From a phage, in the sequence record PX104380.1: 64,000 nt of DNA. One strand, written 5' to 3'. The position numbers and the translations under genes were made by a program. Below the pieces are notes generated by a model. The model searched no databases, had not been told where the DNA came from, and worked only from the letters and a program-made list of their open reading frames with translations. This document shows, piece by piece, positions 41,642 to 49,733 of this stretch (within the stretch, counting starts at the first letter, position 1; the number at the start of each line of letters is the position of its first letter).

Positions 41642-42115
41642 TTATTTGAACGATTTAACGTACTGAATAGAACCTTTACTATTTACAAAGGCAATTTTAC
41701 CATTTTTATTATACATGGTAGCAGTACGTTGATAACCATAAGTTTGTTTACCAGATTGATAACCAACTAATGCGAAATTATCTTCGCCCATTTTATTCTG
41801 TTTAGCGCGAATGCGTTCATGACCATGTGCCATAAGAACCTTAGCATCACCAGTTACAATGGATCGACGAGTTTTTTCATCTTCAACTGTATTAACAAAG
41901 TCGTCAAATGAATCAAATTTAGCATGAGATTTATTATACAGTTTTCCATCTACTGCATAATTATATCCCTGTACATCCATCTCAACTTCTGTACCATCAT
42001 CCAATACAGCAGTAATTTTCTGTCCTTTTTTAAATTTCAAAAGATCAGTAAAAGATTCAGCAATAATTTGAGAATTAATAGCTGCTTCAGTGATAAATTC
42101 TTGATATGTTTTCAT
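41642..42115 (-). CDS. capsid internal protein (IPII/IPIII-like)
   Basis: 157 aa beginning MKTYQEFITEA, the capsid-targeting sequence of T4 internal proteins; upstream of gene e. Confidence 0.7.
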   Translation of the reverse strand: MKTYQEFITEAAINSQIIAESFTDLLKFKKGQKITAVLDDGTEVEMDVQGYNYAVDGKLYNKSHAKFDSFDDFVNTVEDEKTRRSIVTGDAKVLMAHGHERIRAKQNKMGEDNFALVGYQSGKQTYGYQRTATMYNKNGKIAFVNSKGSIQYVKSFK

Positions 42116-42168
42116 GTGTTTCCTTTAAATATTTTAATTAGTAATTTGTCTCTTCAAGCAACTGTGAA

Positions 42169-42198
42169 TATACTATCACAATTCTAGGAGAAAGTAAA
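42169..42198 (-). promoter_or_regulatory. T4-type early promoter
   Basis: Plus agtaaac at 42192-42198; -10 around 42169-42174. Confidence 0.4.
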
Positions 42199-42203
42199 CA
42201 ACT

Positions 42204-42698
42204 TTATAGATTTTTATATGCGTCCCAAGTGCCAGTTCTAAACGTCGCAATGACTCGTTTTGCACGATTAGGTGTTTGATTATACCATCTACTTTTAGCT
42301 AAGTTAACTGCTGCTTCATCCCAGCGTTTTTGTTGAAGCATACGTAAAGAATTAGTAAATCCTGCTACACCAGTTTCTCCCATTTGGAAAACCATATTAA
42401 TCAATGCACAACGACGAACCGCATCAAGAGAATCATAAACCGGTTTTAATTTAGCATTTCTCAAAATTCCACGAACAGCAGCATCAACATCCTGATTAAA
42501 AAGTTTTTCAGCCTCATCTTTTGTAATTACACCATTGCAATTACGCCCAATAGCTTTATCTAATTCAGATTTAGCAACACTTAATGATGGACTTTTAGTA
42601 AGCAAATGACCAATGCCAATAGTGTAATAGCCTTCTGTGTCTTTATAGATTTTAAGTCTAAGACCTTCATCTATACGTAACATTTCAAATATATTCAT
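42204..42698 (-). CDS. e: endolysin (T4 lysozyme)
   Basis: 164 aa; [38 protein letters not shown] closely matches T4 lysozyme. Confidence 0.95.
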
Positions 42699-42734
42699 AA
42701 TACCTCCTAAGTGTTTATAGAAGGTATTTATAAA

Positions 42735-43190
42735 TTAAAAGAGGCTGTTCATTATTCGGTAAAGTGAAGGACCCATCACATATTGCCACTGAGTACGAGG
42801 AATAAGAGCAAAAGCATCCATCTCTGGAATCATAACGCCATCTTTATTTTCAAAATAAGACTCGCAATGGCAATTTCTGAACATCTCATGCTCTACTGGA
42901 ATCGTATAATAAAATAACTGTAAGTCTTTATTACTAGAATATTTAAATACACCTAGGTCTTCTAGAAGGTCTGGATTATAATTGCTAAAACCGGTCTCTT
43001 CTAAGCATTCTCTTTTTGCAGCTTCCAATGCATTCAAATCAGAATTTTCTACGCGGCCCTTTGGAATATCCCAACGATGTGCCATCATTCCAGGCTTACG
43101 AGAACCAGTAACCCGACCCATAAATAAATCTTTATCTTCTGTCATAAAGATAATACCAGCTGATAGTGTTTTCATTTTAATTTCCTGCAT
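42735..43190 (-). CDS. nudE: Nudix hydrolase
   Basis: 151 aa; Nudix box GRVENSDLNALEAAKRECLEETGF. Confidence 0.85.
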   Translation of the reverse strand: MQEIKMKTLSAGIIFMTEDKDLFMGRVTGSRKPGMMAHRWDIPKGRVENSDLNALEAAKRECLEETGFSNYNPDLLEDLGVFKYSSNKDLQLFYYTIPVEHEMFRNCHCESYFENKDGVMIPEMDAFALIPRTQWQYVMGPSLYRIMNSLF

Positions 43191-43660
43191 TCAGTGATAA
43201 AGTTATTTAAATTTTGAGTATATTTCTTTTCATCAAAAATCTTTTGTTGTCTGCGTAAACGCCATGGCATTTCAATGAACACGCACCACATTCCTGATAA
43301 TATTGCTGCTGTCAAAATATTAACAAGCATAATTAAAAGAATCCAATCTCCTGTTCTGCCTATTGGACTTTCACCAAAGAAGCAAAATACAAATGATGTC
43401 ACAGGAAAACTAATGATATACCACAGAATCATAATCTTATTTGTAAACCAATCAGCGTTCGTTAGCTTAGCGCGACCATTATGAATACACACGAATTTAT
43501 CATCTGTTATAATAGATGGCTTAGCTGCTTGATATCCCATTCTAAACTCCCTAATCAACAAATTTTTCATATCTTCGGAACAACCATTCCAGTCAACTCT
43601 ATTAACTGAAATGCCATCATCCCCATCATCTAAATCATACCAGCGAGTTTTTAAAATCAT
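43172..43660 (-). CDS. hypothetical membrane protein (e.x region)
   Basis: 162 aa with central transmembrane segments. Confidence 0.5.
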   Translation of the reverse strand: MILKTRWYDLDDGDDGISVNRVDWNGCSEDMKNLLIREFRMGYQAAKPSIITDDKFVCIHNGRAKLTNADWFTNKIMILWYIISFPVTSFVFCFFGESPIGRTGDWILLIMLVNILTAAILSGMWCVFIEMPWRLRRQQKIFDEKKYTQNLNNFITECRKLK

Positions 43661-44019
43661 TTAATTTTCCTGCAATCACTCACAAACTCTTCCATTGATT
43701 CTTTTTCAATATAAGACATGTAGTTGTTATATTCCTTTAATTGTATTTTGTAATCCTTTTTTCTTTGCCAATTTATTTTAAAATTATCATAATGAAAATA
43801 TAACATGGTACCAAAGAATGAAAATAATGAAATAATTTTAGTATAGTGAAGTTCACTCCAAACTTCTATTATATTTACTGTGCCGTCAATGTTTAAAATA
43901 ATACAGTCAATTAACAATCCAAAAAGACTACCCGCAAGAGCTGCAGCCAACGCCACAGCAAAAATTAAAAATGACTCAGGAAGAGAATATTTGACTTTAT
44001 TTAGTTTTGGCTTTTGCAT
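43657..44019 (-). CDS. hypothetical membrane protein (e.x region)
   Basis: 120 aa, two hydrophobic helices. Confidence 0.5.
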   Translation of the reverse strand: MQKPKLNKVKYSLPESFLIFAVALAAALAGSLFGLLIDCIILNIDGTVNIIEVWSELHYTKIISLFSFFGTMLYFHYDNFKINWQRKKDYKIQLKEYNNYMSYIEKESMEEFVSDCRKIK

Positions 44020-44393
44020 CGTGATTCCTTAACAAATTTCATAATTTCATCAAATTCATGTGCAGCAAGTTTAAGCTGATGTTCCTTTTTAATCTTTTTA
44101 CACTGGGCTTTCCAATCACGTACACGTTTACGATAGTGTCTTCCTTGATACCAGTATCCCACCCAATTTACAGGTACTAATAAAAATGGAACTATCATTG
44201 GAAGAATTAGTGTTGACGCAAATATTACATTAGATTCAATATCAGTCATAACATCTATAACTATTCCAACCCCCAGTAGAATTACAAATGATACAGCTAT
44301 TACAGGACCTATTAATACATCAGTAGAAATTAGCTGGCGCTTTAATTCATACTTCAACGGTTTACTTGGAAGATACATTGATGGCTTTGACAT
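44001..44393 (-). CDS. hypothetical membrane protein (e.x region)
   Basis: 130 aa, two hydrophobic helices, basic C-terminus. Confidence 0.5.
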   Translation of the reverse strand: MSKPSMYLPSKPLKYELKRQLISTDVLIGPVIAVSFVILLGVGIVIDVMTDIESNVIFASTLILPMIVPFLLVPVNWVGYWYQGRHYRKRVRDWKAQCKKIKKEHQLKLAAHEFDEIMKFVKESRCKSQN

Positions 44394-48416: not shown

Positions 48417-48513
48417 ATTATTAACAAAGGCTCTCAAGCAAGAACCCTTGATGATAGAGGGTATTAATCAGTGCGGTATGAGTTAATAATAACAAATAAT
48501 TCTTAAAGCATAT

Positions 48514-48801
48514 TTACCATTTATGATAATACATATTTACGATGCACTCAAGACCCAAAGGATTCTTGAAAATATCATATTCAAGAGGACCTTTTTCTGT
48601 TTCAATAAAGAAATCAAAATTTACTGTATTAAATTTATGGTCTTCCTTCACTAATTTAACTTGAGAAGATGAACGGTCAATGTAAACTTTTTCAACTTCA
48701 AAACATGTTAAAATACCATAATCATCAATCAAGGCTTTAGCTGCTTCTTGATCATATTTATATCCATTTTCAATGGATGATACTTTTGCATAAAGAATCA
48801 T
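48514..48801 (-). CDS. hypothetical protein
   Basis: 95 aa, tightly coupled to upstream ORF. Confidence 0.5.
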   Translation of the reverse strand: MILYAKVSSIENGYKYDQEAAKALIDDYGILTCFEVEKVYIDRSSSQVKLVKEDHKFNTVNFDFFIETEKGPLEYDIFKNPLGLECIVNMYYHKW

Positions 48802-48804
48802 TAT

Positions 48805-49224
48805 TTACCCTTCATCAACAATAGTATGAGTGTGGGCATTTACAATTTGCCACCAATCAAAGCGATTAGAACCATACATTGGTTTGTTCTCATTTTCTTT
48901 GATAATGTCACGGAGTTCATCTTCGGTAGCGGCTTTCGCGATTAAATCAGCATACCCACCGCGAGGATAATAATTATCACCCGCAAAAAGTAAAAAGTTC
49001 GGTTTAATATTATTGAACTCTTCAAGAGTAATAACTTTTCCTGTCGGTTGAACAATCTCTACATATTTATATCCTAATTTTTGAGCAGCATCTACTGCTT
49101 CAAGCAGGGTATCATGAGCCCATCCAATTTGGCAATCTGGCTTTTCAGATGGATTAGCCTGATAATCCGCGTACACTTTATACATTCTATTCACCTTTAG
49201 AAATTTTATCCATAACGATAGCAA
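48805..49224 (-). CDS. hypothetical protein
   Basis: 139 aa; probable start at internal Met (MYKVYADYQ). Confidence 0.5.
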   Translation of the reverse strand: MLSLWIKFLKVNRMYKVYADYQANPSEKPDCQIGWAHDTLLEAVDAAQKLGYKYVEIVQPTGKVITLEEFNNIKPNFLLFAGDNYYPRGGYADLIAKAATEDELRDIIKENENKPMYGSNRFDWWQIVNAHTHTIVDEG

Positions 49225-49372
49225 TTAAACCAATTAAAAATGCTACTACAAGTGAAAAAACATTTTCTGCTGTAGTCAATAATCCGCATATAAATCCAAC
49301 AAACATTGAAAAACTAAAAGCAGAAGCAGAAATTGCAATAGCAACATTTCGAATTAATTCACAGCGTTTCAT
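49187..49372 (-). CDS. small membrane protein
   Basis: 61 aa, almost entirely hydrophobic; behind an early promoter. Confidence 0.45.
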   Translation of the reverse strand: MKRCELIRNVAIAISASAFSFSMFVGFICGLLTTAENVFSLVVAFLIGLIAIVMDKISKGE

Positions 49373-49400
49373 TTTATTCTCCTCAGTAGTTGATAGGGTA

Positions 49401-49430
49401 ATAGTATCACAACTAAAACCCTATGTAAAC
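49401..49430 (-). promoter_or_regulatory. T4-type early promoter in a stem-loop context
   Basis: Plus atagta at 49401-49406 flanked by inverted repeat tagggt...accctat; tgtaaac at 49424-49430. Confidence 0.5.
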
Positions 49431-49448
49431 AACTTTGTGAAAAATTTA

Positions 49449-49733
49449 TTACAAAAGATTTTTAGCAATAATTTTAAGCTGAGCTACTGAAATATGCTTG
49501 GCTTTAAACAAAGCAGTTTCTTCAGCAGGGGAGATAACGATTGTAGCACCATCTTTCTTAGCGGACCATCCATCACCCAGGTAAACAGTACCTTTGACTT
49601 CTTCGCCATCAACCAGGCTAATCATCGGTTTACCTTCACGTCCTTTGTTTGCTTTAATAACTTCAGAAGTAAGGGTCGCTTCAGTCAAAGTAGAAGCGTT
49701 AGTGGTTGAAGTGAATTCTTGATAAGTTTTCAT
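49449..49733 (-). CDS. ipI: capsid internal protein I-like
   Basis: 94 aa beginning MKTYQEF (capsid-targeting sequence); T4 position of ipI next to 57B; strong early promoter upstream. Confidence 0.7.
   Translation of the reverse strand: MKTYQEFTSTTNASTLTEATLTSEVIKANKGREGKPMISLVDGEEVKGTVYLGDGWSAKKDGATIVISPAEETALFKAKHISVAQLKIIAKNLL

Follow-up and report, generated by a model that had tools for sequence, protein, structure and literature searches.

The 64,000-nucleotide stretch of phage DNA analyzed here (sequence record PX104380.1; hereafter, the window) carries two genes of the T-even internal protein (IP) system, ipI and ip4, at the two ends of the interval 41642-49733. Both lie on the minus strand: the open reading frame (ORF) at 42115..41642 encodes 157 amino acids (aa), the ORF at 49733..49449 encodes 94 aa, and both products start with MKTYQEF. 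The best explanation, which we regard as probable, is that ipI and ip4 are two cassettes of this system in a T2-like backbone, and that their products are packaged into the head, cleaved by the prohead protease gp21 and injected. Mature IPI (IPI*) would then block the restriction enzyme GmrSD, while Ip4 most likely has an anti-defence role. The genes, the family names, the leader, the loci and identical protein sequences are all already known from databases and the literature. A sequence-only reading made before this analysis was right in outline, but wrong in calling the 157-aa protein IPII/IPIII-like. Gene identities, leader, cleavage motifs, locus, flanking elements and distribution were established in the present analysis; packaging, cleavage and injection, as well as the functions of IPI, Ip2 and Ip3, are taken from the literature.

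The sequence-only reading had noticed that both ORFs begin with MKTYQEF, and the window contains exactly these two occurrences. Scans of all six frames of the 64 kb with strict and relaxed regular expressions (MKT[YF][QK]EF, MK[ST][YF].[ED]F and others) find no leader of this type elsewhere. A 7-residue N-terminus common to two ORFs cannot be a product of chance, and the proposal that it is a capsid-targeting leader on both proteins is supported. Each ip ORF is preceded by an AGGA ribosome-binding site and by its own early-promoter-like element. Neither ipII nor ipIII is found in the window, and Ip4 is the sole IP at its locus.

The gene for the internal protein I precursor (ipI, 49449..49733, minus strand) is identified by phmmer, by Pfam and by its identity to the T4 gene product. 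Against the PDB, phmmer returns one match, 2JUB "Internal protein I" (E=7.5e-43), in which residues 19-94 align to residues 1-76 with 73/76 identities. The same residues cover positions 1-76 of the Pfam profile PF11634 IPI_T4 (173 bits against a cutoff of 25, E=1.3e-51), and identity to the T4 ipI precursor is 90.5%. The leader comprises residues 1-18 (MKTYQEFTSTTNASTLTE), leaving a predicted mature protein of 76 aa (residues 19-94, 8.05 kDa, pI 9.0). The propeptide ends L16-T17-E18↓A19TLTSE (arrow, cleavage), the 2JUB alignment begins exactly at residue 19, and the LTE↓A site agrees with the L/I-x-E specificity of gp21. The IPI leader keeps Y4 and F7, with processing at E18 instead of E10. 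By homology, the 94-aa protein is thus a true ortholog of T4 IPI, as the description "ipI-like, next to 57B" had anticipated. It resembles its T4 counterpart in locus (between 57B and trna.4), in length class, in the cleavage site (I/L)TE↓ATLTSE and in its mature sequence. It differs in the leader, which reads MKTFKEF in T4 and is here one residue shorter, and in three conservative mature changes (I28V, A65V, H67Q). An identical IPI occurs in UFV05, CAM-21 and ECO4, and IPI homologs in 293 phage records. The T4 protein IPI* is the textbook case of an injected inhibitor, directed against the type IV enzyme GmrSD of E. coli CT596 (PMC3012670; PMC12373910).

The 157-aa protein belongs to a different family. 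Its gene, encoding the internal protein Ip4 precursor (ip4, 41642..42115, minus strand), is assigned by Pfam, PHROG, identity to T2 and an AF2 model. The protein matches the Pfam family PF24183 DUF7412 over its full length (residues 1-157 to profile positions 1-158, 317 bits against a cutoff of 27, E=2.5e-95) and phrog_3155 "internal virion protein" (E=2e-101). A single difference, V88A, separates it from T2 Ip4, and copies that are 100% identical occur in KMB42 and fPS-2. GenBank names the gene ip4 (T2, MH751506), ipIV (GiZh), Ip4 (AR1) or "putative Ip4" (wV7, ECML-363). The name reportedly goes back to the 1994 nomenclature of Repoila et al. On these sequence matches the 157-aa protein is Ip4, a separate family that already bears a name. 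In T2 the same protein occupies the same place next to gene e; as in the window, denV is missing between ip4 and e, unlike the arrangement in wV7.

The label IPII/IPIII-like would make the 157-aa protein a diverged homolog, or a fusion, of T4 IPII and IPIII, with targets in common (the ECOR21- and ECOR17-type GmrSD enzymes). The locus is the same and the leader is identical in 9/10 residues (MKTYQEFI-E). Beyond this 10-13-residue leader, however, similarity of Ip4 to IPII, IPIII or IPI is undetected (BLAST E at least 0.04; Smith-Waterman z at most 1.7). After removal of the first 10 residues, the comparison with IPII gives E=0.044 and that with IPIII E=13 in a 7-sequence database, and Smith-Waterman z scores against 2000 shuffles are 1.66 and -0.75, respectively. 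The suggested comparison of mature regions with T4 IPI, IPII and IPIII therefore pairs the 94-aa protein with IPI and leaves the 157-aa protein matching none. The families are also distinct in both Pfam and PHROG. Moreover, GmrSD-ECOR21 and GmrSD-ECOR17 both restrict T2 and T6, neither of which has Ip2 or Ip3 (PMC12373910). T2 is sensitive in spite of its Ip4, and supplying Ip2 or Ip3 relieves the restriction. Common descent with IPII/IPIII is refuted at the sequence level, and we give this reading next to no weight. What Ip4 does have in common with IPII and IPIII (Ip2 and Ip3) is the locus, a 10-residue leader, cleavage after E10, a basic character and presumably the delivery route; the mature sequences are unrelated, and a second conserved protease site at E20 is a feature of Ip4.

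The sequence-only reading had also described the 157-aa gene as one gene where T4 has two, which proves too simple. Klebsiella phage K65_evo4 carries an Ip4-like gene followed by a gene for a 100-aa "internal virion protein". The latter is apparently ipII-like, since the sister isolate K65_evo2 matches T4 IpII at ~95%. The apparent side-by-side occurrence of the two genes at one locus in Klebsiella phage K65 isolates indicates that Ip4 is a cassette in its own right, not an allele that replaces another, which also argues against its being an IPII/IPIII homolog. Among GenBank phage records Ip4 is the commonest of the four proteins compared (471 records, vs. 293 for IPI, 261 for IPIII and 198 for IPII). 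In ~307 of the 471 it is at least 95% identical, and in ~160 it is 60-80% identical, mostly in Klebsiella phages and in some phages of other enterobacterial hosts. It is absent from many Tequatroviruses, including T4; the sampled T6 records match only ba-gt. The view that internal proteins are hypervariable thus holds for the repertoire of cassettes, but not for Ip4 itself, which is 95-100% conserved in those ~307 records.

When 1.84 billion representative proteins were searched exhaustively with a profile, just three more distant relatives of Ip4 were added, all metagenomic (34-36% identity), and no bacterial or cellular homolog was returned. These relatives have a related type of leader (MNFEQFLNE↓S and similar). 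One of them, P0015 (metagenomic contig ERR14707364_71623; L006, 1-660), is 36% identical to Ip4 and has the leader MNFEQFLNE↓S. Upstream of its gene are a terminator hairpin and two tandem copies of the late promoter TATAAATA, and the three neighboring ORFs have no PHROG match and are ORFans. These features suggest a T4-like lineage that has not been cultured and whose capsid-targeting leader is a variant one. Public data also contain ip4 copies that are truncated or frameshifted: P0020 (39 aa), P0014 (184 aa, Klebsiella phage vB_Kpn_AM_K5) and H65 (vB_Kpn_AM_K6). Such copies fit a gene that is accessory and dispensable, or else the records contain sequencing errors.

The leader of Ip4 reads MKTYQEFITE↓AAINSQIIAE↓S. 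Suppressor mutagenesis of IPIII has shown that residues 4 and 7 govern targeting and residues 8 and 10 processing, and that the first 10 residues suffice for packaging (PMC9026906). The corresponding residues of Ip4 (Y4, F7, I8 and E10) are identical to those of T4 IPIII, and these four mapped positions are also invariant among close members of the Ip4 family. The gp21 specificity for L/I-x-E (PMC9026906) fits both ITE↓A and IAE↓S, and T4 IpII and IpIII are annotated as precursors numbered -10..mature (X04567). E10 and E20 are invariant in 14/14 close family members, with I, L or M at P3, and are nearly invariant when the distant relatives are added. The second (I/L/M)-x-E↓S site, at E20, leads to the prediction of a 137-residue mature protein (residues 21-157, 15.5 kDa, pI 9.3, net charge +5, with 17 K in Ip4). 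Consistent with a removable leader, the AF2 model (pLDDT 83.7 and pTM 0.78, raised by adding the distant relatives) shows residues 1-20 as disordered and residues 26-157 as a confidently folded core of mixed alpha/beta structure. No solved structural counterpart of this predicted core was found.

As far as sequence can tell, the delivery route of Ip4 is strongly supported, and we infer that the protein is packaged and cleaved. The opposite view, that Ip4 is an ordinary early cytoplasmic protein which retains an ancestral leader and is not packaged, seems highly improbable. It could draw on the early type of the gene's own promoter: neither ip gene has a copy of the T4 late-promoter consensus TATAAATA immediately in front of it, the nearest being located before gene e for ip4 (42725..42732, minus strand) and upstream of 57A for ipI (50859-50866). 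The T4 ip genes are arranged alike, however, and transcription that starts at the late promoter before e can continue past that gene, so that ip4 may be expressed late from it. In addition, close family members show no variation at the mapped leader residues (4/4) or at either protease site. The 34%-identical metagenomic relatives keep a leader of the form MNFxxFLNE↓S, and the gene on L006 is directly preceded by its two late promoters.

Taken together with published work, packaged delivery would proceed as follows. The precursors would bind the scaffolding core of the prohead through the N-terminal capsid-targeting sequence, after which gp21 is expected to cut behind (I/L)-x-Glu, at E18 in IPI and at E10 and probably E20 in Ip4. 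The leader would leave, and the basic mature proteins (8 kDa IPI* and ~15.5 kDa Ip4*) would stay in the head with the DNA. In T4, internal proteins are present at ~300 copies each per head (PMC9026906). Injected together with the DNA, the mature proteins could act before any phage gene is expressed. IPI* would then bind and block a CT596-type GmrSD, which otherwise cuts glucosyl-hydroxymethylcytosine DNA, and Ip4 would most likely be a further injected, target-specific anti-defence protein.

The suggestion that the mature sequences target host defences thus stands for IPI, a documented GmrSD inhibitor; for Ip4 it is neither new nor demonstrated. Ip1, Ip2 and Ip3 each block one GmrSD subtype (PMC12373910, Silas et al., 2025; PMC9391042) and do not cross-protect (PMC12373910). 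IPII and IPIII (Ip2 and Ip3) inhibit GmrSD-ECOR21 (BrxU) and the two-gene GmrSD-ECOR17. For Ip4, we infer an anti-defence role with a confidence only slightly better than even, and several points weigh against the combined picture. Ip4 is 60-100% conserved across phages of Escherichia, Klebsiella, Salmonella and Serratia, which is not the signature of a fast arms race. When ip4-10 were assayed against 15 synthesized GmrSD groups, no reproducible inhibition was obtained, the "ip4" of that study being unconfirmed by sequence as the present protein (PMC12373910). GmrSD-ECOR21 and GmrSD-ECOR17 restrict T2, whose Ip4 differs at one position (V88A), and Ip4 therefore does not neutralize either enzyme at its natural dose. 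The searchable literature, including the fPS-2/fD1 papers and entries under DUF7412 and RB32ORF123c, yielded neither virion proteomics nor N-terminal sequencing of Ip4. As to IPI, its specificity is narrow, a 90%-identical GmrSD escaping inhibition (PMC3012670); given this and the three residue changes relative to T4 IPI*, the exact target range of the present protein is a prediction.

Some of these observations also bear on the view that the main role of Ip4 is that of a core protein in head structure or morphogenesis. Such a protein would be a bulk basic component that aids scaffold assembly, neutralizes the charge of the DNA and replaces IPIII where IPII and IPIII are lacking, with no specific defence target. 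In T4, mutation of IPIII halves the rate of head assembly and reduces the burst to ~40% of its normal size; IPs also bind to DNA when salt is low (PMC9026906). The phage has no ipII or ipIII, leaving Ip4 as the only IP at its locus, and Ip4 is lysine-rich and basic (17 K, pI 9.3), unusually conserved for an arms-race protein, and (if the assayed "ip4" is the same protein, which its sequence does not confirm) negative against all GmrSD groups assayed. On the other hand, IPIII, the very model for a structural role, is itself a specific GmrSD inhibitor, and a T4 phage null for the IPs is viable (PMC9026906). The ip4 gene is absent from many Tequatroviruses and frameshifted in some genomes. Specific recognition, as opposed to bulk charge, is also suggested by a domain of 130 residues that folds confidently and in which ~17 positions stay invariant even in relatives of 34% identity. 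We therefore regard a mainly structural role as rather unlikely. A further possibility, to which we give a fairly low probability, is that Ip4 is an injected inhibitor of a defence outside the GmrSD groups assayed, for instance another class of modification-dependent nuclease or a first-response system that is not a nuclease. If so, its high conservation would reflect a conserved and widespread host target, and its fold would be a new inhibitor architecture.

The surroundings of both genes are of the kind described for IP cassettes. Before each ip gene lies an element of the form AAAGTTGTTTAC-N-GTGATA(C/G)TAT, a T4 early promoter whose -10 region is surrounded by a short inverted repeat. The copy upstream of ipI (49755..49805, minus strand) contains AAAGTTGTTTAC, with a -35 box TTTACA, a 17-nt spacer and a -10 box TACTAT. 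Its inverted repeat, GATGAGGTA/TACCTCATC, surrounds the -10 box, and the promoter scan places a TG-extended promoter at 49792..49764. A second copy immediately downstream of ipI (49392..49443, minus strand; promoter scan 49429..49401) has the stem ATAGGGT/ACCCTAT and serves trna.4, so that two near-identical copies bracket ipI as a cassette. The early-promoter-like element upstream of ip4 (42160..42210, minus strand) likewise contains AAAGTTGTTTAC, followed by TGTGA-TAGTATAT-TCACA. The 12-mer of the element occurs in 5 copies in the window, all on the minus strand (0.87 expected), and 3/5 flank ip genes. Outside the ip loci, copies of TTTTTCACAAAGTTGTTTACA...GTG(A/G)TACTAT are found on the minus strand at 17686-17697, 31364-31375 and 46530-46558, and they align column for column with the copies flanking the ip genes.

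Promoter/stem-loop elements have been described at the two IP loci and proposed to mediate the shuffling of cassettes (PMC2839356, PMC4122927). The present arrangement resembles the PeSL boundaries (Arbiol, 2010; Comeau, 2014) in having an early promoter with an inverted repeat before the ip genes and in the bracketing of ipI. As these authors note, the T-even IP elements are analogs of the PeSLs of RB49 and phi1 and not their homologs, being T4 early promoters with weak, AT-rich stems; their part in cassette exchange is here putative. The two ip genes occupy the two IP loci already known to be polymorphic, and promoter/stem-loop elements mark the boundaries. A T2-type ip4 locus combined with a T4-type ipI cassette in one phage illustrates the independent assortment of the two loci. 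At the ipI site, the 57B locus of T2 (L003, 2971-3606) carries two other leader-bearing genes, encoding an 84-aa IP5-like protein (MKTFKEFATKTTITE...) and a 102-aa protein (MKTFKEFINE↓AAAPK...).

The phage is a Tequatrovirus. Over the full length of the region it is 94-97% identical to many Tequatrovirus genomes, the closest being BECP11 (97.4%), followed by CAM-21, ECO4, wV7 and HY01. Gene order is as in T4 and wV7: vs.8, ip, e, nudE, e.2-e.8, tRNAs, trna.2-.4, ip, 57B, 57A. The 152-aa 57B ORF (49806..50264) is the immediate upstream neighbor of the 94-aa ORF, which has trna.4 (49187-49372) on its other side, as in T4. At the other locus, vs.8 and the lysozyme gene e flank the 157-aa ORF, at a position occupied in T4 by denV-ipII-ipIII. 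The ~7 kb between the two ip genes hold ~20 unrelated genes (e, nudE, e.2-e.8, 11 tRNAs and trna.2-.4) that are not part of the feature.

Judged by its genes, the backbone is T2-like and its DNA contains glucosylated hydroxymethylcytosine (hmC). It is called T2-like on account of a T2/T6-type glucosyltransferase and the lack of denV. At 170-1018 and 1009-1749 (both minus strand), the window encodes gene 42 (dCMP hydroxymethylase, 94.7% identical to T4) and, downstream of it, a beta-glucosyl-HMC-alpha-glucosyltransferase of the T2/T6 type (Pfam TAGT) that replaces the T4 b-gt. Given this enzyme, the DNA probably carries gentiobiosyl/alpha-glucosyl-hmC as in T2 and T6. For a phage with hmC DNA, the restriction enzymes that matter are those of type IV. 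The T2/T6-type allele is found in ~485 Tequatrovirus records vs. ~30-35 for T4 b-gt. Chimeric megablast queries return ~311 records with ip4 and the T2/T6-type glucosyltransferase and at most 3 with ip4 and the T4-type b-gt. A functional tie between ip4 and the T2/T6-type enzyme was considered and dropped: the T4-type b-gt is confined to the ~30-35 records of the T4 clade, so that phylogeny explains the association, which is no evidence of function.

No denV gene (endonuclease V, a pyrimidine-dimer glycosylase) is present anywhere in the 64-kb window. At the junction between ip4 and e (42116-42203), the flanks meet cleanly at the site of the 417-bp denV of wV7. The layout is vs.8-ip4-denV-e in wV7 and vs.8-denV-ipII-ipIII-e in T4, whereas the present phage and T2 are denV-less. 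T2 is classically v-minus and UV-sensitive, which fits its denV-less layout.

An Rfam scan of the interval returns tRNAs only. The tRNA cluster (47399-48416, minus strand) contains 11 genes (Arg, His, Asn, Tyr, Met, Thr, Ser, Pro, Gly, Leu and Gln) vs. 8 in T4, and has neither the homing endonuclease segB nor tRNA-Ile. A 114-nt gap (47555-47668) separates tRNA-His from tRNA-Asn, and tRNA-Tyr (47748-47834) is called by ARAGORN and not listed by Rfam at the gathering threshold. At 45648-46181 (minus strand), a 177-aa ORF (RB32ORF130c-like according to the wV7 annotation) stands in place of T4 e.7 (111 aa) and is preceded by a near-consensus sigma-70 promoter (TTTACA-17-TATAAT, 11/12). With this ORF, the same hyperplastic region shows a further replacement of cassette type.

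With IPI and Ip4 but neither Ip2 nor Ip3, the phage is predicted to be resistant to GmrSD of the CT596 type and sensitive to the ECOR21/BrxU-type and ECOR17-type enzymes. Predictions of this kind bear on the host range of therapeutic T-even phages. They could be misled by inconsistent labels, such as those of SH7 (KX828711), which labels ip4 as "internal head protein II", and RB55 (KM607002), which labels a T4-type b-gt as "beta-glucosyl-HMC-alpha-glucosyl-transferase". Identifying the target of Ip4 would extend the present picture of the arms race between internal proteins and GmrSD.

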